64,000 bases of DNA from Podarcis vaucheri (lineage: Eukaryota): NCBI GenBank assembly GCA_965113315.1, contig OZ220371.1; one strand, given 5' to 3'. A program made the position numbers and the translations under genes. The notes beneath the pieces were generated by a model that saw only the letters and a program-made list of their open reading frames with translations, did not search any database and was not told where the DNA came from. Shown here piece by piece: positions 7,751-63,705 of the stretch (positions within the stretch are counted from its first letter, which is position 1; every line of letters starts with the position of its first letter).

Positions 7751-8798
7751 GCTTCAAAGGTATAAAGGGTACGCAGAGAACAGCATGATAAGTCTCTTTT
7801 TTTTAAGCATTTGGGGTATAAGAATATTGCATCAAGGTTAACACTAGGGTCTTTTTTAATAAACAGAACTTTGAAACTTGTGGCCATGAAACAAGGAGAG
7901 GAACTTAAAAGCAGATGTCAAACTGTTAAAAGCACTTTTGTATAGAATTCCCCCCTCCTTCTTTCAGTATCAGGCACACATATTCAACACACTCTCCCCC
8001 TGTAAGCCACACTGGCTATGCCAGTGCCAGTGCTTAAGCCTGCTAGTCAAAATACCCAGCAAGGCACCAGTGGGATCTGGTGTGTGTGAGAGAAAATCAA
8101 AGTCAGCAATTGTTTTGCTTAAATGTCCTAAGATACTTCCTTTCCTTTTGTTCAGCACTGCAGTTGAACCAAGGCTTTGTACACACAACCGTATCCCTAC
8201 GAAAGGGGCCTGTCAAAAACACTGGCTGCTTTCTGCGTAGCCAATCTTATTTAATTTGTGCTACCTGAGGGGCAAGAAGAGATACCAAAGAAGTAGGGAG
8301 GAAGGCCCTTCCTTTGCTTCTTCACAATTTCTCTCTGTTTTCCATACATGCTTTCCTAAAAGCTAAACCTAAGTCACCACTTATGTTTCTGCTCTTTGGT
8401 GCACATCCAGCCCGTGTTTCCTACTGACCTCCTCTAGAAGGCAAACTGCTCAAGGGAGAGAACACATTTCCTTGGTATGGCCTGACCTTACTCAGCTCTC
8501 CTACCTGTCATCTCACCTGGAGGAAATGCTTGGGAAGAGACAGATTTGACCATACCATGGAGATGGATAAGGGAGAGGAAACATTCCTTCCCTCTCATTT
8601 ATATGTCCAGTATTCAATTTTCTCCATATGTGATCATTTAAGACACAAAGGATGGTAGGGTTAGGGTTGTCAGCTGTAGGTTAGATGATGTATCTCAGAA
8701 ATATAAATTATTGAGCCTTACTTGCATTTCTTCAGCCTGTATTTTATCTTTTGAAAAGCAAACATTAATGTTAAATGTGCGTCTTCTTTTTCAGGAAA

Positions 8799-9239
8799 AT
8801 GAGGAAGCCTTTTATTTATTGGATATGCTTGTCTTTCACCCTCTTGACCATCTGGGTTCACTGTGAATCAGCTGGGAGTGTTTGCAAAATTACAGATAAT
8901 ACAGCAGATTGTAGTCATTTAAAGTTGACTCAGATTCCCTCTGATCTCCCAACCAACATAACAGTTTTGGATCTTTCCCATAATCAGCTAAAAACGCTTC
9001 CACCTGCAAACCTTACAAAGTATGGACAGCTTGTTTACTTAGATGTAGGATTCAACACCATCTCTAAACTGCACCAAGAACTGTGTTTGAACTTGCCTTT
9101 GTTAAAAGTTTTGAAGCTGGGACATAATCAGCTGCATAAATTTCCTGACGATGTTTTTATTCACTGTGGCAATCTGAAAGAACTTAATTTGGGATTCAAT
9201 ATACTGGAAATAAAAAATGAGCCTTTCATCAATCTGAAG
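8799..9239 (+). CDS. TLR3: Toll-like receptor 3, coding exon 1 of 4 (signal peptide, LRRNT, first LRRs; 441 nt)
   Basis: Acceptor TTTCAG|G at 8795, ATG at 8799. MRKPFIYW...CKITDNTADCSHLKLTQIPSDLPTNITVLDLSHNQL is the TLR3 N-terminus. Donor AAG|GTAAGA, phase 0. Confidence 0.97.
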
Positions 9240-9555
9240 GTAAGAAGCAAATTTCACCTGTGATTTTGAACATGAACTTGGATGATGGCCAAGTCAAATT
9301 CAGATCAGCAGGGAAGAGGGGTGGGTAAGACATGGCAGTAAGTAGTTGCCTTACACAAAATCCAGATCATGGATCAATCTGTCTGGCTAATAGTTATTTT
9401 TTACTGGCAGCACTTATCCAATTTATCAAATAGAGGTATTTTCCAGATGGGCCTGAGATCCTTTATTCAAAGATTCCAGGATTCAACCTAAAGATGAGTA
9501 CACAATGAAATAAATGCTCTTATATATGCCTCCTCCTTGTCATTAGAGCCTATAA

Positions 9556-9700
9556 GGGACACGGGTGGTGCTGTGGTCTAAACCCCTGAGTCTCTTGAGC
9601 TTGCTGATGAGAAGGTTGGCGGTTCAAATCCATGTGATGGGGTGAGCTCCCGTTGCTCTGTCCCAGCTTCTGCCAACCTAGCAGTTTGAAAGCATACCAT
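9556..9700 (+). mobile_element. Sauria SINE, 5' part
   Basis: GGGACACGGGTGGTGCTGTGG head, B box GGTTCAAATCC, GGGGTGAGCTCCCG; matches the reverse complement of 44930-45062. Confidence 0.8.
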
Positions 9701-9780
9701 TTATTGTCCGGGTTCAAGGACGAGCCACTGGACCTTAAAACATCCAGATTGAAAGGTTTGGTGAGCTATGGTTTAAATTA

Positions 9781-9930
9781 AATCATAGAATCATATAGTT
9801 GGAAGGGACTCTGAGGATTATCTAGTCTAGCCCCTCGCAATGCAGGAATATGCAGCTATCCCTTACAGGATTGAACCTGCAACTTTGGCATATTATCAGC
9901 ACCACACTCTAACCAACTGAGTTATCCAGC
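9781..9930 (-). mobile_element. tRNA-head / CR1-tail SINE
   Basis: Reverse strand: A box TAACTCAGTTGG, B box GGTTCAATCC, then a CR1-like 3' end (TCCCTTCCAACT.TATGATTCTATGATT). Confidence 0.75.
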
Positions 9931-10212
9931 TGAAATCCTAGAATTAAATTCACTCAAAATACATACAAGCTTCTAGGACCTGTCTACCTGGCACATTTGA
10001 ATTAGTTTCACCTTTCATGACTTCTCCTGAGGAATCTTGAACTTGTCATTTGTGAATACAAATGTAAATTCTTTGCACACACAGAGAAAAAGGGAAAATT
10101 AAGCACAATCCCCATGTATCCTGTGCAGAAAGAAAGTTTAAAAGCTATAGTATTGAAATACATTTAGTGGATAAAGATATCATCCATCCTTTCCCATGAT
10201 AGTATTATTATA

Positions 10213-10538
10213 CAGTGGTGCCTCGCAAGACGAAAAGAATCCGTTCTGTGGTTCTCTTCGTCTAGCGGTTTTTTCGTCTTGCGAAGCAAGCCCATTGACG
10301 TATTAGCGCTATTAGCGGCTTTTAGCGGCTTATCTGCTGATCGGATCAGCTGATAAGCAGCTTAGCGGCTTAGAAAAAGGGGGGGGAGGAAAAAAACCAG
10401 CAGGAACTTGCAAGACATTGTCGTCTTGCGAAGCAAGCCCATAGGAAATTCGTTTTGCGAAGCACCTCCAAAACGGAAAACTCTTTCGTCTAGCGAGTTT
10501 TCCGTCTTGCGAGGCATTCGTCTTGCGGGGCACCACTG
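10213..10538. mobile_element. Tc1/mariner (Tigger/pogo-like) MITE
   Basis: TIRs CAGTGGTGCCTCGCAAGACGAA / TTCGTCTTGCGGGGCACCACTG, TA TSD. Confidence 0.9.
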
Positions 10539-10734
10539 TATTTTATTTCATGACACCTAAGGATTACAAGCTTAAAAGGGTGATAGCGTTAACTGATAAA
10601 ACTTGATGCAATCTGAAACAGCGTTTCAAACATGCTGTAGTCATCCAGACAGTGTAAAACTGAGTTTAAAAGCTATGCAGTCAGTTGTGAGATGAGGGAA
10701 AAGACATAACTTTCTTCTCCTTTGTCTTCCTCAG

Positions 10735-10926
10735 AAATTGAGTTTGCTCGATGTCTCTCACAATCATTTAAGTACTCCCAGACTAGGCTCCCAGCAACAG
10801 CTGGAGAGTCTTCAGGAACTTGTGATGTCTCAGAATAAAATTACTGAATTGAGGAAAGAAGACCTAGACTTTCTTAGCAACTCTTCGTTAAAAAAACTGG
10901 ACTTGTCATCAAACCCCCCAATGCAG
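10735..10926 (+). CDS. TLR3: TLR3 coding exon 2 of 4 (LRRs; 192 nt)
   Basis: Acceptor CCTCAG|AAA; KLSLLDVSHNHLSTPRLGSQQQLESLQEL...LKKLDLSSNPPMQ; donor CAG|GTAAAT; phase 0/0. Confidence 0.97.
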
Positions 10927-11194
10927 GTAAATGTCATACAACTGGGCTTGTTTTATTGATGTTAGTTGTACAGATGTTAGTTGTATTCAGTTAGGATAAC
11001 CTTAGCAGGCTATAATACTGGTTTGTGTTATTTAAAAATGAATTTGATAAATGAGTAGTTGTTTAAATACCTTATAGGTAAAAATACTAATATATTCACT
11101 GTTTTCTTTATATGATTGGCAGCTTAAAGAATTTTGATTAGCATGTCCTGTTGCATAAGAGGGAACACAGCTTACATAGAGTTGAAACTAAATA

Positions 11195-11428
11195 CAGTGG
11201 TACCTCGGGTTAAGTACTTAATTCGTTCTGGAGGTCTGTTCTTAACCTGAAACTGTTCTTAACCTGAAGCACCACTTTAGCTAATAGGGCCTCCTGTAGC
11301 CGCTGGAACACGATTTCTGTTCTCATCCTGAAGCAAAGTTCTTAACCCGAGGTACTATTTCTGGGTTAGCGGAGTCTGTAACCTGAAGCATATGTAACCT
11401 GAAGTGTATGTAACCCGAGGTACCACTG
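11195..11428. mobile_element. Tigger/pogo-like MITE, family A
   Basis: TIRs CAGTGGTACCTCGGGTTA / TAACCCGAGGTACCACTG, TA TSD. Same family as 22627, 47093 and 60546. Confidence 0.92.
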
Positions 11429-12002
11429 TATGAACAAGTTGAAGATAAGCAATGAATTAGAATTACTATGAATTTTTGGACAATGTCTGGAAAGAGCCCT
11501 GCCTCCCAGTTTTCTCTTTCATTTTCCTTGTGGCAATGGCGGCTGGACTGTTTTCATCCAGCCCTCAGTGATCCAGCTGTTGCTACTGCAAGAACAAGAG
11601 AGAAGACTGGAAGGCAGTAAGCTCAGAGGCCCAACCACAGGCCACAATGGCTAGAGCATCTTTCCAGAAGAACATCTGTGGTTGTGGTCTTCTGCATGTG
11701 CCTGCCAACCTGCTTGTCTCTCTTCATCTGAGGGCTGGGTTCCTGCAGGCTGGATGTGATATGGGAAGAAAGAAAGGGGCCCCCAGGGTGGCATGGTGCC
11801 TGTAGACTCTGCACCCTTACAGAAAGGCCCAATGGGAACAATGCTACATTATGACAAATACTGTTTCCCCCCCACAAAATTGTGCCATTAATCAGTCACA
11901 ATTTCACACACATCCCGAAACAGAATTGGCTGAATATTTCAGTCCAGGGCTAATTTCATGCAGCCACTGTTTTTGTAACCCCATTGTTTTGTATCTTTCT
12001 AG

Positions 12003-13819
12003 TTTCATCCAGGTTGTTTCCGTGCTATTGGTAATCTCTATGGTCTTCTCCTTAACAATGTTCCATTGGGACCTGATCGCACAAAGAATCTTAGTTCTGA
12101 ATTATCAGGAACAAGAATTCAGAATCTTTCACTGAGCCATGTGCAGCTTTCACAGATTTCCAACTCAACTTTCAGTGGAATGAAAGAAACAAACCTCACA
12201 ATTTTAGACCTATCTAAAAATGATTTGTCTCGCATTGAAAATGGTTCTTTTGTCTATTTTGAAAATTTAAAGAGTTTGAATCTAATGAATAATAATATTA
12301 GATATATATATTCTCATTCCCTCTATGGGTTGCACAATGTAAATTATCTGAATTTGGAAAACTCTAATATAAAAAAAATTAATGATTCCGCTTTCCGGTG
12401 GTTAAAACATTTAGAGTGCCTTATTATGGATGGCAATAAACTTCTGGAAATTACCCCTAATACATTTAAAGGTTTAGAAAATTTGAAAAACTTGAGTTTA
12501 AGCCAGTGCAATCTGACTGTAATAACAGAGAAAACCTTTTCATCTCTTGCTAATTCTTCATTGCAGTTTCTCAACCTAACAAAATGTGGAATCACTTATA
12601 TGAAGGCTGGTGCCTTTTCTTGGTTGGGACAATTAACATCTCTGGATTTAGGTTTAAATAATATTAAGCAGGACCTCACTGGCCATGAATTTCAAGGTCT
12701 CAGTAATATTGAGACTCTCTATCTTTCTTACAATAGTCATCTGAATTTGACAAGTGAATCATTCACTTTCACTCCTAGCCTTAGAAAGCTGAGACTCAGA
12801 AAGGTTGGTTGCAGTAATCTTGCCATCTCTCCCTCACCATTCCGTAAGTTAAGCAATTTGACTATCCTAGATCTTGGTAACAACAACATAGCTAATATGA
12901 GAGAGGAGATATTTGATGGACTCCACCAGCTTGAAATTCTGGATTTGCAGCATAATAATCTGGATCGACTGTGGAAGCACGCCAACCCAGATGGCCCTGT
13001 TCTGTTCTTAAAAGGTCTTCGAAACCTGCGTCTACTTGATTTAGAATCCAATGGCTTTGATGAGATTCCAGGAAAGGCTTTCAATGGCTTATCTCAATTA
13101 AGAAGCTTGAATTTCGGAAAAAATAACTTTAATTTGTTTCCAACGTTTGTCTTCGACGAACTGGCATCTCTGAGCTCACTCTTCCTAGAGAAGAACCTTA
13201 TCACAGCTGTTGACGAAAAAGTGTTTGGGCGAATTTTCACAAATCTGAAGGAAATAAATATGGAGGGCAATCCTTTCGACTGCACTTGTGACAGTATAGC
13301 TTGGTTTGTTAATTGGCTCAATGGAAGCATAACATATATCCAAGGATTAAATAATTATATCTGCAACACCCCTTCTAAATATCATGCTAACAGGATTACA
13401 CAGTTTGATACCTCACCATGTGATAGTGCACCCTTTAAATTGGTCTACATTGTGAGCACTTCTTTGGTACTGCTCCTCATCTTTGTAGTCCTACTCGTCC
13501 ACTTTGAAGGGTGGAGAATCAAATTTATCTGGAGTGTGACCGTAAACAGAGTCTTTGGCCACAGGGAATTAGACAGGCCACTGCTACAGTTTGATTATGA
13601 TGCCTATATCATTCATGCCAAAAAAGACAGGAAATGGGTGTCCAAAAACTTTATTCCTCTTGAAGAAAACAGTCAACCAGAAATTAGGTTTTGCTTGGAA
13701 GAACGAGATTTTGAAGCTGGGATATCTGAATTCGAAGCAATCATCGACAGTATAAAAAGGAGCAGGAAAATTATATTTGTTGTAACTGAACATCTCTTAA
13801 AAGATCCATGGTGCAAAAG
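12003..13819 (+). CDS. TLR3: TLR3 coding exon 3 of 4 (LRRs, LRRCT, TM, first part of TIR; 1817 nt)
   Basis: Acceptor TTCTAG|TTT; FHPGCF...; LDLQHNNLDRLWKHANPDGP (His539/Asn541 equivalent and LRR20 insert); NPFDCTCDSIAWF; TM helix; EERDFEAG BB loop with the TLR3-specific Ala; donor AG|GTAAGC, phase 2. Confidence 0.98.
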
Positions 13820-14477
13820 GTAAGCTAAAATTATTTTAATAACTGACATTCCATTTGTTTGTTGTTGTTTTTAGAGCATGTCTTCACTACCATCTTAAAC
13901 TAGCTTCAAACCTTTAAATTGGTGTGATTCCCAGTCAAAGAATCTTTGGGGCTGTCTCTTTGGGGGAAATGATGAATGCAGTGGCAGTTTCCTGCCAGTT
14001 TCTGGGACTTCTAGGTTCTGTCCCAGTCCCCAGGTGGAAAAGATGTTCTGTAAGGGCCCTCAGAGGCTGGGAAAGGAGAAGATAGTGGTAGAAGTCTTAT
14101 AAGGTGATGCAAATCTTACAAGGTCTTTGAGCTTTTGGGGAATTTTATTAGGACACTCACAAAGGCTTGATCCCCTTCTGGGCTGTACTTTTGCAAGCAC
14201 ACTTGTACAAGAAAAAATGAATTATAAAATTGGAAATAAATGGTTAAATTGTTGTAAACTCAAAACTGGAAGCACAATATAATGATTTGAACTTATGTAT
14301 TTTCTTAGTGTCTCAAATGCCTTAAATCCATTCTTCCTTTTGTGAGCAGGAATAGGTGATAATATCTTGCACTGTACTAAGTCTCTTGGCAGGCAATCCA
14401 TATGTTGCACTCAGATTGTCAGGCACTAAGATTGTCATTACTCGAGAATCGGGAAACATCCCTGAGGATAATAACTA

Positions 14478-14734
14478 CCGTATTTTTTGCTCTATAAGAC
14501 TCACTTTTTTCCTCCTAAAAAGTAAGGGGAAATGTGTGTGCGTCTTATGGAGCGAATGCAGGCTGTGCAGCTATCTCAGAAGCCAGAACAGCAAGAGGGA
14601 TTGCTTCTTTCACTGTGCAGCGATCCCTCTTGCTGTTCTGGCTTCTGAGATTCAGAATTTTTTTTCTTGTTTTCCTCCTCCAAAAACTAGGTGCGTCTTG
14701 TGGTCTGGTGCGTCTTATAGAGCGAAAAATATGG
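14478..14734. mobile_element. Tc1/mariner MITE, family B (CCGTATTTTTC TIR)
   Basis: TIRs CCGTATTTTT.GCTCTATAAGAC / GTCTTATAGAGCGAAAAATA.GG, TA TSD, internal hairpin. Confidence 0.88.
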
Positions 14735-15255
14735 TATTTGCTCTCTTGAGTATTTGCAACAAGGGTTTGAGAAGTCACAAGCTGGTGGGGGGTGGGAACA
14801 CTCTCATATATTTAGGGAAAGTTGCAAACAGAGGTGGCAGTGTTCATGCATTTAGAGTAAGGGCAATGCTTCTGGCATTCAGTCCAAATTATTTGGTCTT
14901 GTCACATAGCCAAAACGTATTAGCTACAGGGCATCATAACATTTGCATGGTTGTTGCAAGATCCTTGACTGGCTGTGGCATGAAGAAGCTGTGACTTAAA
15001 ACAAATGTGGCTTCAAAGCAATTGCAGGTTGTTCCCAAGCTGTCCTTGACTTCTCTTTCATAATTGCTTGCATGCGGTTCATGGCAGAATCTCAACACTT
15101 CTGGAAACCAGTTTTCATGGAAAAAATGATCACTGCCTCTCAGCCTAACCTGTACCTCACAGGGTTGCAATGGGGTAGAACCATGGGCACCATAAGTAGA
15201 GTGCAATTATAATCATATCCTCAGCTGAAAACAAGACCACCTGAATACCCTATTC

Positions 15256-15508
15256 CAGGGTTCAGCAAACATTTTCAGCAGGGAGCGAGTCCACTGCCCC
15301 TCAGACTTTGTGGGGGGCCGAACTATATTTTAGAGGGGGGGGGAATGAATGAATTCCTATGCCCCACAAATAACCCAGAGATGCATTTTAAATAAAAGGG
15401 CACATTCTACTCATGTAAAAACACGCTGATTCCAGGACCGTCCGCGGGCTGGATTTAGAAGCCAATTGGGTCAGATCTGGCCCCGGGGCCTTAGTTTGCC
15501 TACCCATG
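15256..15508. mobile_element. hAT (Charlie-like) MITE
   Basis: Perfect 8-bp TSD CCCTATTC (15248-15255 / 15509-15516); CAGGG...GCAAAC / GTTTGCC.ACCCATG TIRs. Confidence 0.85.
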
Positions 15509-15660
15509 CCCTATTCTGTGAACATTGCTTGTTTTTGTTAGCATTTTACCATTGACTCAGAGTCACTACATCGTAAGAGAAAATGAGCAATTGCATACAT
15601 TTGTAAGTGAAATATTGTTATGTCCCAAATTAGCTCTCATCCCCTTTGTCTTCTGTCCAG

Positions 15661-15889
15661 GTTCAAAGTGTATCATGCCATACAGCAAGCTATTGAACAA
15701 AGTCGGGATTCCATCATTCTAGTTTTTCGGCATGACATTCCTGATTACAAACTGAAAAACGCACTCTGCTTACGAAGAGCGATGTTCAAATCTCGCTGCA
15801 TCTTGGAGTGGCCAGTACAGAAAGACCGTCATGGTGCATTTTACCAGCAGTTAAAATTGGCACTTAAAACTAGTAGCAGGGTACTATGA
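15661..15889 (+). CDS. TLR3: TLR3 coding exon 4 of 4 (TIR C-terminus, stop TGA; 229 nt)
   Basis: Acceptor GTCCAG|G; (R)FKVYHAIQQAIEQSRDSIILVFRHDIPDYKL...ILEWP. The spliced CDS is 441+192+1817+229=2679 nt, 892 aa, with no frameshift. Confidence 0.97.
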
Positions 15890-17216: not shown

Positions 17217-18360
17217 CTTGATTTTTAAAAATATGCAGTTTTGGTAATTAAATTGTTATGAAATTTAGGGGAAAGGGCAAATTTTAAAGAAACAATAATA
17301 GTTTTTGTATATATAAAAATTGTGTCTGAAGGGACGCTTTCAGAAGATCTAAAGTTGAAAATAAAGGATCCTGTTTACAGATGAACTGGTATGTGACGAT
17401 TCCTTAATTACAGTAATTGGATTATCGCCATTGTGATGCGCTCATCTCATCTTTCTGATCCTCTTTTCACTTGAAGTGACAAGTTCTCTTGTCTAGTTTA
17501 AGCCATGAAAGCTGAGGAGGCTTCAAGGTGGTAATGCCAGGTTTCTTTCCAGGTAGATTATACTTTCTCCTATTTAAAGAGGAGCTCATAAAGATCTAAA
17601 TTCCTCTGGTAGAATAAAACAAACAGCATGTACTCAAGAGAATCATGTCACCAGTTTTAGGCACCCAAGTGAAGTACTTGAAAAGAGGCCTCTCTGATGC
17701 CACATAACAAAGCTGTTTTGGGAAACTTAGAGGAGCTTTATGAGCAATATGTGTTAAAACAGAGAGATCCACTGAGCAGGGAGAATCTGCTGGGCACCCC
17801 AAGGCCTTGACCATGTCAAAAGTAACTGTTTCCAATATTTCCTATGGTTGGGGTGCATTTTTAAAAAATTCTAGCTGGCCAGTAAGGTTGAACTTGTACA
17901 TTGAGTATAAATTGCAATAAAATAGTTCTATTAGTTAGAAAACAAAAGTAAATGTATCCATGAATTCTGAACACACTGAACTAATGCAGTGAGTGAAAAA
18001 TGTTTTCATAAACATTTGGCTAGGTTAGCTTTATTTGGCTAGTTTAGCCTGATAAATAGAGTATTGTATTTATACGGTTCCTGGGTTTTTGAACTTTAAA
18101 GTAATGTGTCAAAAACCTGGACGCTGTCATGTAGAAGGGCTAACTGGCTTATTTTTGTTTCAGGCAGTTTTAAATATTGATACTATGGTAAATTTCCTAC
18201 AATTACACTCCCAAACATTCCTTATGGATGTGTGAATTATTGTGCTAACTGCTTGGAGAGTAAAAGTAAATGCTGCCAGCCAGTTAGGGATTTCAGAATG
18301 CCACAATGAATGAAATACACCTTCCATCAAAATCAGCAGTAGGAAGAAAGATAGCATCTG

Positions 18361-20752
18361 GAGTTCCGGGTTGGTGCCTCCGGCAATGGCGGAGTTCCTC
18401 TGATCGGGAGGAACTTGCCCCGTGGGAATTTGGGTCTGTACCGCCACGGTGAAGGCGGAGACCCATAAAAATCACAGGCGGGAGAAGCCTGTGAACGTGG
18501 GATTCGGCAGGCACCATTTGCGCCTCCCCTACTTGCGGGGGAACCCGATTTCGGGGACCCAGAGTGACATGGGGTGAGCGGCGCGGTGCTTCGAATCGTC
18601 TGCTTCTTCCATGGAGCGAAGCCGCATAGCTGTTGCCGGAAAGCACTGACTTTTTCCTGTGGACAATTTGACTCCAAAGTAATTACCCGTGAATAGAGCT
18701 GATACGGGAGAATCGGATTTTAAACGTTTAATTGGGCATCGAAACGGGGAGGTTCAAAACAGGAAGTCTGTCTTCCCTATTTGTAAATAGACTGAGGCAA
18801 GGAGTCTGTAAGCTGAAGTCTTGGAAAGCCTTTTGTAAAAGATTAAATTTCCAACGGCAAAGAGTATAAAATCCTCCTTGGAGGCAGGAGAAGAGGGGGG
18901 GGGTGGAGTTGTGGACTGAGTATGCCTGCAGGAGAGAGTAAAGAGAGTTAAAATACTGCCACTCTGTCCCTGGAAACGGGCTGCCAGTAGGACTGACGTT
19001 TTGGAATGTCCATTGACAGCATTAGAATGTTCCTTGACAACTAGCAAAATAAGAGAGATATATTGTTTCTGCTGTCTCCGGCTGCTTCTAAAAAGGAGTA
19101 ATAAAGTAACTGAAAACTGAAACTAACTTTGGATTGTACGAGTTGCGCTTAAAGGTGACATTCTTGATTATTATAAATAGAAAATGTTTCCCCCTAGTGG
19201 AAGTTTCTGAAATTGGTTACTTTATAAGAGCTGGGCTAGGGGAGTTTCCAGCTGCAAAATAAAAACTGTGTGACTCTGGGATTGACCTTGAATCTCTTAA
19301 GTGTTATGGCAAATGGAAAGGAAAGAACAGATGAAATGTTAACAGAAGAGGCCTTAGTGGCCGCATTATTGAAAATAAATGACTCGCTTCATAGGAAAAC
19401 AGAAGTGATGAATGTGAAAGCAGATGCTGCACATAATAAAATTGATTTAATTGTAGAAAGTTTAAATAATCTGGGACAAAAGGTGAACACCAACACAGAA
19501 ACCACCCAGAAATTGACACAGGAATCTACTTTAATATGGCAAACTGCGGATGAAGTCAGGGAGAAAACCTTTGCTGCTGAATGTAAAACAACACAATTGG
19601 AGTGTGAGAGAGCCCCATACATTCAAAAGCAACTTGACGAATATAAGCTGACATTTGCTATGATGGAGCTTAAAGAAAAACAGATGAATTTGAAGATCAG
19701 AACCCCACCAGAACTGGGAAAGGAAAGTTCGACAGAGCTTCAGGAGGAGACAGGATCAACATCGGCTGAGAAAGAGAGACTATTGGGGGTCAGTAGGACC
19801 GCCAAAAATGTGAATTTACTTAAGGGCAACTGTGAAGGACGTTGGATTGAAGAGAAGGGGGATTGGGAAATATGGACAAATCTGAAGTTGCTATGGTTGG
19901 GCCAAGCTGTTGTGGTGGGGATGAGGGTTGCTGTGTTGCCGGGGATGTTGCTTTTGTGTCAAAAAGTGCAAGTTTTGGATGGGAGGGATTGTTTCAGGAG
20001 GTGGCAGAGGGATGTTCCTGGATTGGTTTGGCAGGGCAGGAAGCCTCGAGTAAAACTTAAGATATTGACGGATGCTAAAGAAGGAGGTGGACCTGCCCTG
20101 CCAGACACCTAAACTTTGTTGTGAATCATTTGCTTTTTGCTGGCTGAGAGAATGGCTGTCTCTTAAAAGCACTGAAGTGTTGGATAATGGCAGATGAAGT
20201 TGATGGACTAGACGGAATTGGCGGAAAAGATTGGCAAGATCCGAGACCAGGGAGAAGAGTCGGTGGAAGAAGACTGGGAAAGGTTTAAAGACTATTTACA
20301 GAAATATTGTAAAATTAATGAATGTTAGAAGAATGTTGGAATGAAATTATATGGCTTCAGTAGAAATGTTATAAAGAATTAAGCATAAATAGATTAATAG
20401 AGTATTAAAGGAAAATAAGGTTAAAAGATGTTAAGATAATTATAGGATAGAAAACAGGGGAAGATGGTAAGGAATTGCTGAAATAATTAATAGAAGTGGA
20501 ATTAATAGAAGTGGACAAAAAGGGAGGTGTGAGGAAGCCATGGAAATATGGGAAAGAAAGATAAGATATTGGAAGTTTTTTTCTTTCTTTTCCCCCCTTC
20601 TTTCTTTTGATGTGTTTTTAAATTGTTTTTGTTTTGTTTTGTTTTGTTAATTTTTATGTAGTGTTTTTGTATTATAATGTATTGTTTTTTCTTTGTTTTT
20701 TCTTTTGTAAGTGTTTAAATTGTTGTAAAAGCAATAAAAAGTATTATAAAAA
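18361..20752 (+). mobile_element. Complete, internally deleted non-autonomous L1 derivative (5'UTR + ORF1 N-half fused to an ORF2 fragment + ORF2 C-terminal remnant + 3'UTR/polyA)
   Basis: 20-bp TSD AGGAAGAAAGATAGCATCTG (18341-18360 / 20753-20772); AATAAA at 20733 plus a short A tail; CpG-rich 5' end. ORF 19306-20112 has a coiled coil, NLKIRTPPE, then LVWQGRKPRVKLKILTDAKEGGG.ALPD, homologous to the L1 ORF2 at 59915-60460 (-). Confidence 0.9.
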
Positions 20753-22626
20753 AGGAAGAAAGATAGCATCTGAATGCGCAGCCAGCTGCAGCACAGACAA
20801 TATCTGCATTTGGTTGCACAGAGGCACACAGCTAATGGCCATGGCTACTAAAGGCAACAATATCTTGAGACTGTGGGAAGGAAAGACAGAAACGGTGGGC
20901 TATATCAACCACAAATTTGCAGCGTATTTGTGATCAACTGTGTGGAGTTCTCACATGCCACATTGCAAACATACTGTACGCATGTATGATGGCCAATGCT
21001 GCAGTCCTGGGTGTGCATGCTTTGAAGTATGTCCACTGAATACTGTGGGACTTATTTCTTAGGAAACAGACTTAGAAGTGCACTGTAATTCACACTATCA
21101 GTTCACTATTTGCACATTCAGTGGCATACCTAGGCTCCCTTCCGCCATTCTCTGGCAAGGAGCTATATGCCCCCAGTCCCTTGCACTGCTGTGTTGAGGC
21201 AGCCACAGCAATGGAGGAGTGGCCCAGAGAGCAGGTGGGCAGACTCCGAGCCACAGCAGAGACATGTGGTTTTTGCATTCCTCTGGGACTATGCCCTTGG
21301 CAGGGGCAAACCTAACCAACCCCTAGGTACACTCCTATGCAGCTTTAATATTGAAAGCCAGAAATGGGATGCTCTCTCACATTTACAGAGATCAGTACCA
21401 CTAGATGCCAGAATGGGAGGTATTTGTGTCTCTAGTTGTCTATCCCCATCTCCTAGTGGTGATTTACAAAGAAACAAATCTTGCATGTTAATTGGTAATA
21501 GCACAAATGTCACATCTAACTTTGCCCTGGGCCCACTGAATCTTTATTGTACAATAAACTGATTATACAGATCAGTCAAATCTTGTTTCCCTAATATGTT
21601 TCTCTAAGGCGGTTCTTTTCTAAGACCAGATTCCCGCTATTAAAAAAAAAAAAAAGCTTTTCTAGAAATTTGAGTTTGCTTTGCTCTCTTCACAGCACAA
21701 GAAATAGTTTTCTTGAAAAATAAAGCTTGTTAGATAACGGTAAGCACATTTTTTGTGTCACAGTTTAGTTGTCAAGACATGCTATAAATGCATTATGCAG
21801 TTCTTAACAATACTCTGCTGATCAGTCTTGCATATTTTACTCTTTTTAAAAACCAAAATCCAATTATGTGTTTTAAGTTTATAAGCCAAAAATACATGAT
21901 CCGGTTCTATTCAGAATTAAGGTGTAACTAATCTGCTGAGTATTCCTGTAAATTATAATTTAAGAATGTAAGCACCACCTGAATCAGACCAAGGTCTAAC
22001 TTGTTCAGCATCCTTTACAATAATCAAGGCAACCAGTTGGTATTATGTGATCTAACAGAAATTGCCCACTGGTCCACTCTTAAACCACTGTCTGTCTTAC
22101 CTTTAAATACAGTGGGCCGTACTTCTGAGTAAAAATGCACAGAACTGTGCTATTAAACACATTTCCTAGGGAAATGAATTCTGCTGAACTCAGATTTACT
22201 TCTGAGCGAAATGCTTAGCAGTTTTTAATTCCTATGGCACTTAAATACAGCTGGATGTGTTTTAATCTAGGTCATTTGTTTCACATCATACACAATTATT
22301 CATTGATATACTAAATAATATGCAACTTACATAAAAGTTGTTTTTTCTTCATAGATATTGAGTATGATTATTATTTTTTAACGTGTAAACAGCTCCCGTG
22401 ACTTCTTCACACATCATGGGGCAACAAAGTTTGTTACAGATCCATGTACCCAGGGAAGGGAGCTGAAGCCAAAAAAAAAAAATGGGCTCACTGAAAACAC
22501 ACACCCAATCCCGAAACGACAAACATTCAAACCGACTCTTGCCAAATTCATCCGATAAAATATATTTGAAGGGTTGGAACCTCGTGGCACACTTAGAATG
22601 GGAACATCTCACAGATTTAAGCAGTA

Positions 22627-22854: not shown

Positions 22855-23829
22855 TAAACAGGCAGACTCCACTGTATGGCCTCAGGATGAGACCTCACAT
22901 TCTTACAATATTTCTCCAAGTACATTCCTTACAAGTCTGCTAATGAATGAGAAGGCTTGGCTGGGATCCTTCCCTGAGGCATGTGGCTTTCTAGAGGCAG
23001 GGAGTTATTTGTTGTAAAGGGGAAGAACATATTCAGACATCCCAGTCCTTCACCTGCAGTGTGAAGGGAGAAACAGCTGACCCTCGTCACTTGCTTCTTG
23101 TGAGAATTAGGCCTTTTACTGAGCTCCAAATGTAGCCTTATGAGGCTTTGCCCTCGGGTGGGAAAAATTTTGCGCCTGGGAAAGGGAAGTGGGAGTCAAC
23201 AGACACTCAAGGAATAGTTTCAGAGAAAAAGTTTTATTTCTACCATCCATGAACTGGTAGAAGGAGCAAGTGTGATAAGTCACAAAAAGCATGCACGAGT
23301 TCACAGTGATGTGCACAAACATATATACCCCTTTCTAGTTCCCTCCCCCTTTCTCCTCCCTCAGGAGTCCTGCCCCATGTTGAGGTTCCTGGGCATGTAC
23401 AGAAAGCTGTCTTGGAACTATTGTGGACTCTTGGCAGGAAAGGGGGTGAGGGGGTTTTCAGAGTGTTCCCGTTGTTTCATTCATTCTGAGAAGACAATGG
23501 GCTCTGTTCTCTACCTTGTTGCAATCTTTTAAGTTACAGCAAGCGGAATGTTTCTGATGCTTAGCTGCTGAGAAAATGATTTTGAAAAGCTTTGAGCCTG
23601 CGGGGGGGGGGGCCTAGGTGAGGTCACCTGTCCTCACCTTCCTTCACAAAGGAGCTTTACATACTTCTAAGGAAATGTCTACACAGCACCGGGCTGAAAC
23701 TATGTGGCATATACTTTAAAATATATGGGAAGTAGTACCTCCAGAGAAAGCTTGCCGTTACAAGGGGAGGAATGAAGAGCGGGCCCACAGGGCTTCCCGC
23801 CCAAGCCTGCAGCTTTCTGTTTTGGCAGA

Positions 23830-24690
23830 GCTGTGGCGCCGACGTGCGCACGCCCCTTCCCTGCTCGCCTCCTTCCCGACGCCTCGAGCTCGGTGAGGGC
23901 GCGCGCGGCTGCAGAAGCATCTGCTGCTGCTAAGTGCCCAATTGCCGGCGCCTCGCTCGCTTTTTTGTTTAGCTTAGCAACGGGCGCTCCCGCCCTCCGT
24001 CGGCGGCACCAGCGAGCGAGGCAGGCCCCAGGCAGCCGCAAGACCAGGAGACTCTCCCGCCTTCTGACGGCGGAGTCTCGCGCCTCGTCGCTCGAGCGTG
24101 CGGCTGACTGAAAGAAGGCGCTCCTTCGCTCCCCGAGTCCCTGAGGGAAGCGGCGGCGGCGGCGCTCTCGCCGCTTGTGTCTGAGGTGACGCTGAGAAGC
24201 TCCTCGGGCCGGGCGGAGGCGGCACCATGAAGGTGGCGGTGCTCGACTTGGGCACCGTGTTTGCCAAACTCTTCAAGCCCTCTTCCTCCTCGTCTCCGCC
24301 TTACTCGCCAACCGCCGCCTCCTCTCCCAGCAGCGCGCCTCAGCCCAAGGCGCTGCTGCCCCTTCCTCCGCCTCCGCTGGGGTCTCTGCCCTCTCGCCCC
24401 GCAGGGGGCTCGTCTAGCATAGCGGCAGCCAGTCGAGGCGCTCCCGGCGGGGCGGCGGCGAAGTCCCCCGGAGGAAACAGCTCTCCGCGCGCGGCGGCGG
24501 CGCCGCCGTCCCTGCCGAGGGAGCCCGGGGCTTGGGCAGCGCCCGCGGGCAAGCAGCTGCTCTTCGTCACTCTGCCCGACATCGGCGAGGAGGGCGCGCC
24601 CGACGCCGACCCCCCAGAAGAGGCAGCGGAGCCCAGGCAAGTGGGAGTCGCGGGGACCCCGCCAGGTGGGGCGCCCTGGGAAATGCAGAC
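23830..24690. promoter_or_regulatory. CpG island, FAM149A promoter and first exon (CCAAT 23938-23942, RFX X-box-like 23967-23981)
   Basis: Abrupt GC- and CpG-dense stretch in a CpG-poor background that overlaps the start codon. Confidence 0.85.
24227..24636 (+). CDS. FAM149A: FAM149A coding exon 1 of 14 (410 nt; GC donor)
   Basis: Kozak GGCACCATGA. MKVAVLDLGTVFAKLF and LLFVTLPDIGEEG match the FAM149A long-isoform N-terminus. Donor AG|GCAAGT, phase 2, compatible with exon 2. Confidence 0.9.
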
Positions 24691-26042
24691 CCTTTTACCC
24701 TGCGGTAACATAATCTCCGGGTGGTTGCAGCTACTTGGCCAACTGGTTGCCTTCTCAAGGGAGGCATTTTCTCCTTAAGGGGCGAGGAGACACTAACTCC
24801 GCTTCCCTGCGTTTCTGATCAGGCACAGAAGGTGGTAACTTCATCATTTGAGAAGAGAATGCAGAGGCTGTATAGACCTTTTTATTTTGAGAGAGACAGC
24901 TTTGTATTTTTGGGGTGGTGAGGGATTTGCTTGCTTTGTTAATTGGAGAAAGGTTTTAAGTTATTTCTAAGACTGCAAATGCAAGATCTCATTTTTTTCT
25001 GGTGGTCCAGTTCATCTTGAATAAACCTCATACTCTAGTTCCCAACTTGCAGGATATTTTCCTACACAGTTCCTATGGATACTATTCTATGTTCATTTAC
25101 TTGGGAGTAAGGCCTATTTAACTCAGTGGAGCTTACTTACAAGTAAACGTGGAATTGATAGAGCTGTAAAAGAATGTGTTTTGTATGTTCCTGGTTTAGA
25201 GTTTTGAATTACTTTTATATATGATCAGTGCATTTAAGCTTCTTCCATTTACACATATAGACCCTACCTGCCAGTCATAGCTCTAAAGGTGCTCTACAAC
25301 ATACTTTAAGGCAATATGGTATAAAACAATTTCCAGTCTCTCCTGCCCTGTGTCCTGTATGAAAGCTTTTAATGTGGGAGAGAAATTCTGTGTGCTGTGA
25401 CCAACATATGAGCGCTAACTGCTCATGTGAAAACATTTCAGAGTTATTGGCTAGGCTATAAATTCAGAATAAAAACGGCTCTCATCCATTTTCTTTCTAC
25501 TGTTTTTAGCATTGACACGTGTGTATAGATAAAGGCAGTGAAGCTCAAAAGTACTTTTAATTTCATATCTGAAAATGCCCACAGTTACTAATGTCAATTT
25601 TCAACAGATTAAAAAAAAAAAACAGTCAATGAACCTTTTCTTAAATTAAAGAATGACCTGCTTCCATTTTGTATTGTTGCATCAATAGCTTCAAAAGTGA
25701 TACACTAGAGACGTTAAAACATTGCTTGTGAAATTGCTCTGGAGGTTGTGCCTGCGTACCCTCGCGTTTGTGTTTCAGGACCAATCTCCATAGAGCTATC
25801 ACTCTCCCGAGGCACTGTGACTCCTGATTGACATGTCATGGAGCAAATGGGAGAAACTTGTTGCCTTCATGTTCCATTACAGAGCTTCATAGAAGCCTAT
25901 GACAGGCCAGTGTCAGAAACAGAAGGTGTATCTAGGTGGGCCCTTTGCTCTGATCTAACAAGATGGTTATTGCGGTATTATGTTCCTCATATGAATTTGG
26001 AGGCACCCATTGTCACCAAAGGCACATGATGACTGTGGCCAA

Positions 26043-58278: not shown

Positions 58279-58660
58279 CTTTTATATATATATAATATTT
58301 ATTCAAAGTTTAAGGTTTCAAAAAGAAAAAAGAACAATACATAATATAAAAAAGAATGCAACAGTAACAGAAAAAGAGAATAAAAGGATATAAAAATACA
58401 TTCAATTAAAAAAAAAGAATTGTTATAGAAAAAAAGAAACAGATTAAACCTTTACATAGCTTTCTTCCTTTACTTATTCCCTTGACCTCCTCACACCTCC
58501 CAATTTTGTATTCTAATTCAAATTTTTTCCCAGCAAATCCTTACAACCTTTTAAATAATTTAATTTAAAATAATATACTTTAACGTCAACTCTTTCATCA
58601 CATTCATCAACTCATTTTTACTTAATCCTTTATCTCATATCTACCAAAACTACCTAATTT
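58279..58660 (-). mobile_element. L1 3'UTR (distal part of the split L1)
   Basis: Minus-strand AATAAA at 58298-58303; GGGAGGTGTGAGGAGGTCAAGGGAATAAG motif; colinear with 20345-20745. Confidence 0.8.
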
Positions 58661-58661
58661 T

Positions 58662-59018
58662 AGAATTCACTGACCTCCAATGAAGCTGAATGTTGAAAGA
58701 TTCGGGATAAAAGAAAATTCTTCTTTACACTATGCAGAGTTAAACTCTGGAACTCTCTGCCACAGGAGACGGTGATGGCCACCAACTTGGATGGCTTTAA
58801 AAGAGGAGGAGACAAATTCATGGAGCAGGAGAGGGCTCTCCGTGGCTTCTGAATCGCAGTTTTTGGAAGCCACAGGAGGTGGGGCGTGTCGCTCTTGGGC
58901 TCCGATATTTCTTGTGGTTTTCCTGAAAGAGACATCTGGTTGTTCACTGCAAGGACAGGATGGTGGACTAGATGGGCCCCTTGGGCCTGATTCAGGAGGC
59001 TCTGCTGATGTTCTTATG
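58662..59018 (+). mobile_element. Older CR1 subfamily 3' fragment
   Basis: TTCTTTACAC...GTTAAACTCTGGAACTCTCTGCCACAGGAG...GATGGCTTTAAAAGAGGA..AGACAAATTCATGGAG, GGACTAGATGGGCC, tail GTTCTTATG. Confidence 0.8.
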
Positions 59019-59196
59019 CAAGAGATCAATCCTTCAGCTTGGCGGCGATTACCTTTGGAACTCCCCACCCATTGAGTGGCGAGGGATTCCCTTCAACCTA
59101 CCTTCTGGGTAGTATTCAACTAAACACATGCACAAGTCAAATGACTCCCAGTTCCTCAATGGAGCTTTCCACCCTTCTCACCCTCACTGGGTGCCC

Positions 59197-59565
59197 CCTG
59201 GAGAAGAGGAGGTTAAGGGGTGATATGATAGCCATGTTCAAATATATAAAAGGATGTCATATAGAGGAGGGAGAAAGGTTGTTTTCTGCTGCTCCAGAGA
59301 AGCGGACACAGAGCAATGGATCCAAACTACAAGAAAGAAGATTCCACCTAAACATTAGGAAGAACTTCCTGACAGTAAGAGCTGTTCGACAGTGGAATTT
59401 GCTGCCAAGGAGTGTGGTGGAGTCTCCTACTTTGGAGGTCTTTAAGCAGAGGCTTGACAACCATATGTCAGGAGTGCTCTGATGGTGTTTCCTGCTTGGC
59501 AGGGGGTTGGACTCGATGGCCCTTGTGGTCTCTTCCAACTCTATGATTCTATGATTCTATGATTC
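59197..59565 (+). mobile_element. Young CR1 LINE 3' fragment
   Basis: Uninterrupted LEKRRLRGDMIAMFKYIKG...RKNFLTVRAVRQWNLLPRSVVESPTLEVFKQRLD and an (ATTCTATG)n tail. Confidence 0.95.
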
Positions 59566-60460
59566 TTTTTCCAACACCTTTCTAACAGTCCTTAATTTTA
59601 CAATATTTTTTGCAGATATACTTTAATTTTTTTCCAATCCTCTTCCACCGACTCTTCTCCTTGGTCCCGGATTCTGCCAGTCATCTCAGCCAGTTCCATA
59701 TAGTCCATCACTTTCGTCTGCCATTCTTCTCGGGTGGGTAATTCTTGTGTCTTCCAGTACTTTCCGATGAGTATTCTTGCTGTTGTTGTGGCGTACATAA
59801 AAAAGGTTCTATCCTCCCTTCGCACCAATTGGCCGACCATGCCCAGGAGGAAAGCCTCTGGTTTCTTCTGGAAGGTATATTGGTTTTAGGATCTAACAAT
59901 TCTGTTTCCAATTTTTACTTTTCCACCTGAAAACCAATTTTCTTATCTAAATTATAAACCTCCCTTATTTGATAGTAATGAAGCCAGTCTCGTACTTTAG
60001 TTTTTAAATCGTCATAGCTCAGCAGCTTTAATCTATCTCCGTCTTGTTCTAAAATTTCCCAGTATTTTGGCCAGTTTGTCTCCATATTAATTTTTTTCAG
60101 AGCCTTGGCCTCCATTGGTGACAACCACCTTGGTGTTTTACTTTCCAACAAATCATTATATCTCACCGAGACATTAAACAATGCTTTCCTAACAATATGG
60201 TTTTTAAAAGCTTTGTGTGCTTTGACCTTATCATACCACAGATATGCATGCCATCCAAAAACATTATTAAAACCTTCTAAGTCCAAGACATCCGTGTTTT
60301 CAAGAAGCAGCCAGTCTTTCAGCCAACAAAATGCGGCTGATTCATAATAAAGTTTGAGGTCTGGCAGTGCAAATCCCCCTCTTTCTTTAGCATCAGTTAA
60401 AATCTTAAATTTTATTCGAGGTTTCTTGCCCTGCCAGACAAATCTCGAGATATCTCTCTT
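59566..60460 (-). mobile_element. L1 ORF2 C-terminal fragment (5'-truncated, probably internally deleted)
   Basis: DISRFVWQGKKPRIKFKILTDAKERGGFALPDLKLYYESAAFCWL and YATTTARILIGKYWK...LAEMTGRIRDQGEESVEEDWKK. No CCHC knuckle is seen between the two blocks. Confidence 0.9.
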
Positions 60461-60545
60461 GATCTCCTTACTGGAAATTTTGAAGGGGGCTGAACAAACT
60501 GCCATTCTATTTCACCTGCAGAGCATGCTTTCTTCAAATGCTGTA

Positions 60546-62703: not shown

Positions 62704-63156
62704 TTTTTTCTTTTTTCTTTTTTCTAATTTTAAAAATAAATTTTATTTCCGATATACACTCTTTTAAAATCACAAACTTACCAAAAAGAAAAAACACAAA
62801 AAATAAACAAATATAGACAGTAAAACATCAAGACGTAAATACATTTTTCCAAAAGTACTAATTATCATATCGTCATTCTGACTTCCCTCCACCACGATTT
62901 AAGCTATATCACATTAATAACCTTCTTGCAGTTCCTTCTTTCAACTTTTGTCTTTACTTCGCAGATTCTATAGTTCACCTACTGTTATTTTAATATTACC
63001 TAAGTTTTTTTCCATGTATGATATAAATTTATTCCAATCATTAATAAAGTTTTTATTACTCTGGTGCCTAATCTTCTGAGTCATTTTTGCCAACTCAGAG
63101 TACTCAAATAGCTTGTTTTGCCATTCACTAATAGTTGGTATTTTAGATTATTTCCT
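62704..63156 (-). mobile_element. 5'-truncated L1 3' end inserted into a MITE TIR
   Basis: T-rich tail at 62704-62724, minus-strand AATAAA near 62742, ORF2-end remnant (EYSELAKMTQKIR); 14-bp TSD ATACCGTATTTTTC (62690-62703 / 63157-63170). Confidence 0.87.
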
Positions 63157-63159
63157 ATA

Positions 63160-63705
63160 CCGTATTTTTCACTCTATAAGACGCACTTTTCCCCCTCCAA
63201 AAATTAAGGGGAAATGTGTGTGCGTCTTATGGAGCGAATGCAGGCTCCATGGCTTCAGCGATAGCAACGCGAAGCCTCCAAAGCGCAGTGATAGTGCTCC
63301 TGCCGCGCTCTGAAGGCTTCGCGCTGCTTTTGCTGAAGCCTGGAGAGCCAGAGGGGTCGGTGCGCACCGACCCCTCTCACTCTCCAGGCTTCAGGGATAG
63401 CCGCCTGAAGCCTCTGGAGCGCAGCGGGAGGTCCCACTGCGCTCTGGAGGCTTCGGGTTGCTTTCGCTAAAGCCAGGAGAGCCAGAGGGGTCAGTGCGCA
63501 CCGATCCCTCTTGCTCTCCTGGCTTCGCTTCACTGGTGAGGTGCTGCACAGCTTTCACTTTCTGCACATCGCCCCTTCAGCAAAGCGGGAGGAGAAATGG
63601 AAGGGGCCATTTCTCCTGTTGCTTCACTGAAGGGGCGCTGTGCAGAGAGGGAGAGAATTTTTTTTCTTGTTCTCCCCCTCTAAAACAATAGAGTGAAAAA
63701 TACGA
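63160..63705 (+). mobile_element. Tc1/mariner MITE, family B
   Basis: CCGTATTTTTCACTCTATAAGACGCAC...ATAGAGTGAAAAATACGA-TA; internal hairpin units repeated twice. Confidence 0.87.

Follow-up and report, generated by a model that had tools for sequence, protein, structure and literature searches.

The element at the locus

The window analysed here is a 64,000-nucleotide stretch of the Podarcis vaucheri genome (assembly GCA_965113315.1, contig OZ220371.1). It contains a Toll-like receptor 3 gene (8775–15889, + strand) and, about 2.5 kb downstream of the stop of that gene and on the same strand, a short derivative of the long interspersed nuclear element (LINE) L1, referred to below as mini-L1. 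There is hardly any doubt that it belongs to a non-autonomous L1 family that has propagated in this genome. Its most unusual feature, absent from an initial annotation made from the sequence alone, is a one-strand cluster of A>G changes within a retained piece of the second L1 open reading frame (ORF2). The same annotation had recognized a 20-bp target-site duplication (TSD), a CpG-rich 5' end, an AATAAA signal, an A tail and a 268-residue ORF, and all of them are indeed where it placed them. In window coordinates, the element is organized as follows.

18341–18360, + strand: left TSD, 20 bp, AGGAAGAAAGATAGCATCTG, an exact direct repeat with the right TSD
18361–19305, + strand: L1 5' untranslated region (UTR), 85.6% identical to the 5' UTR of the autonomous copy L084
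19306–20112, + strand: fused ORF of 268 amino acids, ATG at 19306, stop at 20110–20112
19306–19735, + strand: ORF1-derived part with the coiled coil and the entry motif of the RNA-recognition motif (RRM); 64–66% amino acid identity to ORF1 of autonomous copies L084 and L093
19332–19333, + strand: junction 0, an in-frame 123-nt deletion in the ORF1 N-terminal linker, defined by alignment to autonomous copies
19385–19386, + strand: private in-frame 9-nt deletion of the window copy; the 9 nt are present in 29 of 29 other copies
19735–19736, + strand: junction 1, the in-frame ORF1/ORF2 join, where 3709 nt are absent relative to L084
19736–20185, + strand: retained ORF2 piece, by alignment approximately residues 752–898 of human ORF2p
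19768–20121, + strand: A>G cluster common to the whole family, with an ADAR-type neighbour rule; the window copy has G at all sites
20106–20112, + strand: 1-nt insertion (about 20106) and the resulting stop codon, found neither in the parents nor in the basal copies L131 and L154
20185–20186, + strand: junction 2, where 916 nt of ORF2 are absent, including the C-terminal Cys/His motif
20186–20328, + strand: untranslated remnant of the ORF2 C-terminus, identified by similarity to L1
20329–20752, + strand: L1 3' UTR with a T-rich tract, AATAAA at 20733–20738 and a short A tail
20753–20772, + strand: right TSD, 20 bp, AGGAAGAAAGATAGCATCTG, an exact copy of the left TSD

The 5' UTR (18361–19305), in which the observed/expected CpG ratio reaches 0.92–0.94 at 18401–18800, is presumed to hold an internal RNA polymerase II promoter. 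At the other end, the A tail of the window copy is only 5 nt long. Most intact copies of the subfamily to which the window copy belongs have an ORF of 271 amino acids, and an intact frame (268–278 amino acids) is present in 11 of 30 copies from the DNA search. The ORF1-derived part has lost the remainder of the RRM and the whole C-terminal domain (CTD). The ORF2-derived stretch of the fused frame spans 125 codons, and the C-terminal ORF2 remnant further downstream is untranslated because the 1-nt insertion at about 20106 creates a stop. Neither the fusion protein nor the parent ORF1 has a significant family match in Pfam; the ORF1 domain names used here are our assignments from position in the parent and from motifs. 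The retained ORF2 piece presumably comprises the end of the reverse transcriptase (RT) domain, the thumb and the start of the wrist.

A dispersed family of copies

Copies were searched for over the 1.6-Gb host genome. The DNA search scored 40 of 7801 candidates, and 31 of the 40 scored loci match at least 2.2 kb in one piece at 85–100% identity. Exact patterns spanning junctions 1 and 2 gave 184 and 180 genome matches, respectively, and the reversed control patterns gave none; as exact patterns only were counted, both numbers are lower bounds. A flanking repeat of its own, 11–21 nt long, was found for 25 of the 30 loci examined, the remaining five being truncated. When 60 copies were chosen by junction 2 alone, 29 reached the 5' end. 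The initial annotation had proposed a non-autonomous family of trans-mobilized deletion derivatives, recognizable by shared junctions with different TSDs, and this is the pattern observed at many loci. From the 11–21 nt TSDs, A tails and 5' truncations we infer that the family is mobilized in trans by a related L1 ORF2p. Junction 1 is also bridged by DNA contigs under two organism labels, one of which is perhaps the window's own source; one of these labels likewise has contigs bridging junction 2.

There is practically no chance that the window copy is an ordinary L1 that suffered deletions after insertion at this locus, or a copy of a spliced L1 mRNA. Nothing favours locus-specific deletion, and it was rejected since the junctions are common to at least 180 loci with different TSDs. 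Splicing could draw on the AG that precedes the right end of junction 2, but it was also rejected, as none of the three deleted segments begins with GT.

A tree was built from those 108 of 130 examined copies in which 640 nt or more of the ORF are preserved, the rest being too truncated; 40 of the 108 were chosen by protein similarity, which favours open frames. Besides the two basal copies, L131 and L154, it resolves five subfamilies, with the window copy inside a clade of 30. Source lineages have diverged by up to 0.12–0.14 substitutions per site, but the tips are short, at about 0.02 in all subfamilies and in the basal copies alike. Clade-shared changes show a sense-strand excess of T>C and C>T. 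Together, these patterns suggest many serial rounds of error-prone copying within a short time.

Two structural variants were observed among the copies. One subfamily (L046, L051, L054, L057, L058, L060, L062, L123 and one more) has in common an insertion of 102 nt in the 3' region, a repeat of sequence close by. In L030/L100, a family copy is broken at the place matching 20162, where the 5' end of a long L1 immediately adjoins it.

An autonomous parent and three deletions

For comparison with autonomous elements we used twenty 9.9-kb loci, 19 of which were taken around long ORF2 frames. Three of them (L084, L093 and L096) are 82–87% identical to the 5' region of mini-L1. The ORF2 of a relative matches human L1 ORF2p at 5e-135 and contains an RVT_1 match. 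Both ends of the element are homologous to an autonomous L1 of the same genome, and what has been deleted includes the endonuclease (EN) and the catalytic core of RT.

Relative to L084, mini-L1 lacks three segments: 123 nt and 3709 nt, both in frame, and 916 nt. The 3709-nt deletion starts at the RRM entry and reaches the end of the RT domain. The initial annotation had described two deletions and overlooked the in-frame one of 123 nt at about 19332. It was right about the in-frame switch and about the second junction at 20185/20186, but the first junction lies at 19735/19736 rather than at about 19725. Similarly, its placement of the ORF2-like part downstream of the RT core holds with respect to the catalytic motif, but the piece begins within the last 20 or so residues of the RVT_1 match. 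The linker removed at junction 0 is partly preserved in the basal copies, L131 keeping 57 nt and L154 48 nt. As these copies have a partial linker and lack the 1-nt insertion near the end of the frame, the element must have shrunk stepwise after its birth.

A one-strand A>G cluster

The retained ORF2 piece is 58% identical to the parent in protein and 78% identical in DNA. We defined as founder-level those changes that all of the family has, a basal copy among them. Such changes are A>G in 33 of 38 cases inside the ORF2 piece and in 8 of 26 outside it (p = 1e-5). Expressed per available adenosine, 33 of 154 are changed inside the piece and 8 of 571 outside (p = 7e-17). Within the most heavily altered 200 nt, 25 of 28 founder-level changes are A>G, and the cluster includes runs such as AAA>GGG and ATA>GTG. 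A direct comparison of the basal copy L154 with the autonomous copy L096 gives the same picture: among 50 differences over 444 sites, 37 are A>G, 5 T>C, 2 C>T and 1 G>A. The cluster starts 32 nt past junction 1 and ends 64 nt short of junction 2.

The neighbourhood of the changed sites is distinctive. A 5' neighbour G is found at only 1 of 33 changed adenosines, compared with 42 of 120 unchanged ones (p = 1e-4). The 5'-neighbour preference reported for ADAR1 is U=A>C>G (PMC3113232). Many of the A>G changes fall on residues shared with human ORF2p; for example, IKM (VKM in human ORF2p) has become VGM in the family. No comparable cluster occurs in the 19 autonomous copies, where no 200-nt stretch holds more than 5 private A>G, or among the private changes of any of the 108 family copies.

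Taken together, these observations make it likely that ADAR hyper-edited adenosines of the founder RNA to inosine (A-to-I) and that reverse transcription then fixed the changes, a reading drawn from the pattern of substitutions. In retroviruses, A-to-G hypermutation is likewise fixed through reverse transcription.

The obvious competing source would be a burst of reverse-transcriptase errors, or an L1 donor rich in G that is missing from our sample. We regard this as improbable. It would account for the five of the 33 sites at which G is common among autonomous copies and may simply be inherited, and source lineages of this family do gather many strand-biased transitions anyway. However, these later transitions lean to T>C and C>T rather than to A>G. 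The 33 sites include 25 at which G is absent from all 19 autonomous copies, whose mean pairwise dS (synonymous divergence) is 0.58. The avoidance of 5' G, the changes at residues shared with human ORF2p and the lack of similar clusters elsewhere also speak against it.

Several other points weigh against hyper-editing. At three further sites, G is seen once among the 19 autonomous copies. A 3' neighbour G shows no significant enrichment (11 of 35 changed vs 22 of 117 unchanged, p = 0.16). As to a double-stranded RNA (dsRNA) partner, whose absence would favour an error burst or donor instead, the parent L084 has no long inverted repeat, no partner was found within the parent or the element, and the 3' UTR pairs with the edited stretch no better than with other ORF2 windows. 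Two exact-pattern searches, a weak test, found no edited but undeleted copies, which fits a single event, if weakly. Finally, no edits attributable to ADAR1 were detectable in more than 2.5 kb of expressed human L1 RNA, and ADAR1 reportedly restricts L1 with no editing being detected; the same authors allow for rare editing events in human L1 RNA (PMC5224506).

Probable selection on the open frame

We next consider whether the fused frame has been maintained. Among 208 clade-shared changes in the ORF there is not a single new stop, with 8.2 expected from the mutation spectrum (p = 3e-4). The two control frames behave as expected (7 stops observed vs 9.1 expected, and 6 vs 6.6). The deficit persists among post-founder changes (0 vs 6.0, p = 0.003) and in the ORF1 part considered separately (0 vs 4.8, p = 0.008). 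Indels point in the same direction. All six indels common to at least three copies within codons 11–269 are in frame (+21, –63, –3, –9, –24 and –3), whereas only 23 of 57 private indels are (p = 0.007). Of the shared non-slippage indels in the 5' UTR, just 4 of 29 have a length that is a multiple of three (p = 1e-4 against 6 of 6). The initial annotation had named random disruption of the ORF in other copies as evidence against its view; the frame is instead open in source elements and has been kept open.

These tests use the alleles of real copies and pairwise values, and the pairs are not independent. Private differences of single copies were strand-biased (T>C 11.3 vs A>G 5.6 per 1000); they therefore include pre-insertion changes and are not a clean neutral control.

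With this in mind, selection on the open frame is likely, about as likely as the editing. The alternative that the ORF is a neutral leftover, joined in frame by chance and not yet decaying, is decidedly unlikely, and somewhat more so than a non-ADAR source of the cluster. In its favour, the nonsynonymous to synonymous ratio (dN/dS) of the ORF2 part is near 1, and A>G changes are unable to create stops. Choosing 40 of the 108 copies by protein similarity biases selection tests toward open frames. In addition, many copies show recurrent frameshifts in an A-run that follows the first ATG; after such a frameshift, the frame begins at another ATG a few codons away. Against it stand the missing post-founder stops together with the expected behaviour of control frames, the six clade-level internal indels that are all in frame, and the distance of up to 0.14 substitutions per site over which source lineages have kept the frame open. 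Besides the sampling bias and the A-run frameshifts, three observations tell against selection on the frame. The stop deficit of the ORF2 part alone is borderline (0 vs 3.0, p = 0.05). Two out-of-frame events at a GA repeat, each present in two non-sister copies, lie outside the count of six, and so do the A-run frameshifts and the +1 at 20106, which is tolerated near the frame end.

What the frame is maintained for is a separate question. Between subfamilies, dN/dS of the ORF2 part is 0.84–1.63, compared with 0.10 in autonomous copies. For the coiled-coil part the values are 0.49–0.71, below 1 in all six comparisons, compared with 0.30 in autonomous copies. Judged by these ratios, the coiled-coil half appears to be under weak constraint and the ORF2 half looks neutral-like at the amino acid level. 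The initial annotation had envisaged a functional fusion protein, which agrees poorly with an ORF2 half that is neutral-like and altered by A>G at residues conserved to human ORF2p. Its suggested dN/dS test of the coiled coil came out below 1, but weakly so, with site-count tests for constraint not significant (p = 0.18 and 0.08).

Nevertheless, the fusion protein could be the selected product if its coiled coil co-trimerizes with ORF1p and draws its own mRNA into L1 particles, any dominant-negative effect being a by-product. We consider this possible but rather unlikely. It is consistent with the low coiled-coil dN/dS, with the stop deficit in that part, and with the lengths of the indels shared within the coiled coil, +21 and –63 nt, which correspond to whole heptads (one and three, respectively). 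Moreover, non-autonomous LINEs that encode ORF1 have been proposed to multimerize with the autonomous protein (PMC5786205). On the other hand, within-subfamily coiled-coil dN/dS is similar (0.57–0.84), the site-count tests are not significant, the RNA-binding RRM and CTD are deleted and the ORF2 half is unconstrained. Autonomous copies also vary in 21-nt steps, so that heptad-sized indels may be mechanical. A predicted complex of the mini-L1 coiled coil with two parent ORF1 chains scored 0.63, with 0.47 for a single control; we counted this neither way.

On balance, we lean, by a narrow preference, towards an RNA-level rather than a protein-level reason for the open frame. The coiled-coil dN/dS and the heptad-sized shared indels count against this preference, as they indicate some protein-level role. 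In raw RNA reads from an organism denoted B, which may be of another species than the window (four runs from two studies, 6–12% of each), depth at junction 1 is about 2 or less and the reads are mostly of autonomous-type 3' sequence, which goes against the scheme proposed below. Two presumed-RNA contigs, X1 and X2, have no 31-nt bridge of junction 1.

Proposed origin

We think it probable that mini-L1 is a non-autonomous L1 family whose founder was an ADAR-hyper-edited RNA, reverse-transcribed into the germ line with flanking deletions. In this scheme, some 350–450 nt of an L1 transcript would have been double-stranded, probably with antisense L1 RNA, and ADAR would have turned about one-fifth of the adenosines in this stretch into inosine. 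The L1 reverse transcriptase would then have read inosine as guanosine (G) and switched template to either side of the edited stretch, which would make editing and deletion a single event or nearly simultaneous ones. Transcription of the resulting copies would be driven by the retained 5' UTR, and ORF2p of autonomous L1, acting in trans, would prime at the retained 3' end. The main reason for keeping the frame open would be that translation, together with a short 3' UTR, stabilizes the RNA and holds it on ribosomes near ORF2p. The edited ORF2 piece would serve as passive filler that needs only to be readable, and through its coiled coil the protein may also co-assemble weakly with ORF1p.

A more far-reaching version, which we put forward tentatively and consider less likely than not to hold in full, is that ADAR attack on double-stranded L1 RNA itself makes new parasites. 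The hyper-edited stretch would be cut or would stall RT, template jumps at each of its two ends would build a mini element in one step, and the edits would become heritable in hundreds of copies. The L1 machinery would then reward the translating of a junk frame, not the protein.

Other L1 derivatives and the surroundings

The same L1 lineage has given rise to a second non-autonomous family. It encodes ORF1 only (241 amino acids), has two internal deletions and shares the same 3' tail; examples are L103:1–1410 and L162–L166. Forty scored loci match it at 86–100%, and the 241-residue frame is present in four of five examined. No ADAR-type cluster was found in this second family. In L103, a 5'-truncated mini-L1 copy lies directly after the tail of the ORF1-only element.

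Within the window, the minus strand carries a 5'-truncated autonomous-type L1 of the same group, broken by other insertions (58300–60470), and a second L1 3' end (62740–63160). On the plus strand, a diverged stretch related to the mini-L1 5' UTR (72–305, 70%) is followed by a 194-residue frame with a coiled-coil-like start (694–1278); together they are possibly another L1-derived short element. A GC-rich island at 23500–25000 contains a frame (24185–24778) that, as far as we can judge, recalls the FAM149A N-terminus.

Comparison with known elements and significance

Mini-L1 alone is an ordinary kind of element; it is notable for the probable editing fossil and for what is likely selection on the frame more than on the protein. 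It resembles HAL1 in that the L1 5' UTR and 3' end are kept via internal deletion, the frame is derived from ORF1, EN and RT are lost, and spread is presumably in trans (PMC5753468, PMC5786205). HAL1, however, encodes ORF1p only (PMC5753468), whereas the present family keeps just the coiled coil, fused to an edited ORF2 piece. As in HAL1, an ORF1-type frame is maintained in source elements, although the amino acid constraint is weak. The family works like HAL1 but is outside its ORF1p-only definition. Other bipartite non-autonomous LINEs (HeT-A, Ag-Sponge, RIME, NARTc and RTE-derived elements) also keep both ends after internal deletion, and some of them keep ORF1 (PMC5786205). Mini-L1 differs from them in having three parts (5' block, internal ORF2 piece and 3' block) and a chimeric frame.

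The long CpG-rich 5' UTR and coiled-coil ORF1 are reminiscent of the long-5'-UTR lizard L1 'clade 1' of Boissinot and Sookdeo 2016, which has no spacer or a short one before ORF2 (PMC5381506). The parent, an autonomous element of about 7 kb and in this unlike mini-L1, is likened to that clade by features, not by a tree. The excerpted text of that paper makes no mention of non-autonomous elements or HAL1, and that of Sookdeo 2018 (PMC5872511) none of non-autonomous elements, HAL1 or a fusion. The cluster itself, with clustered one-strand A>G and avoidance of 5' G, resembles ADAR hyper-editing as described (PMC3113232). It differs from known hyper-editing in that a germ-line LINE family has carried it from the founder on, in at least 180 copies and exactly between two deletion junctions. 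Neither this family nor a LINE founder edited by ADAR turned up in a literature search that excluded the original HAL1 paper (Bao and Jurka 2010), subscription journals, Repbase/Dfam and supplements; since the HAL1 paper was outside this scope, a HAL1 with such a fusion may already be described.

If the proposed origin is correct, the family would be a natural record of RNA editing in L1, written into germ-line DNA and amplified there, in contrast to expressed human L1 RNA, in which direct sequencing found no editing. It offers exact sites and a known parent for asking whether ADAR edits L1 RNA in reptile gonads, and it also bears on whether editing promotes template jumps. Finally, it separates selection for an open frame from selection for a protein, and so bears on why HAL1-type parasites keep their frames.

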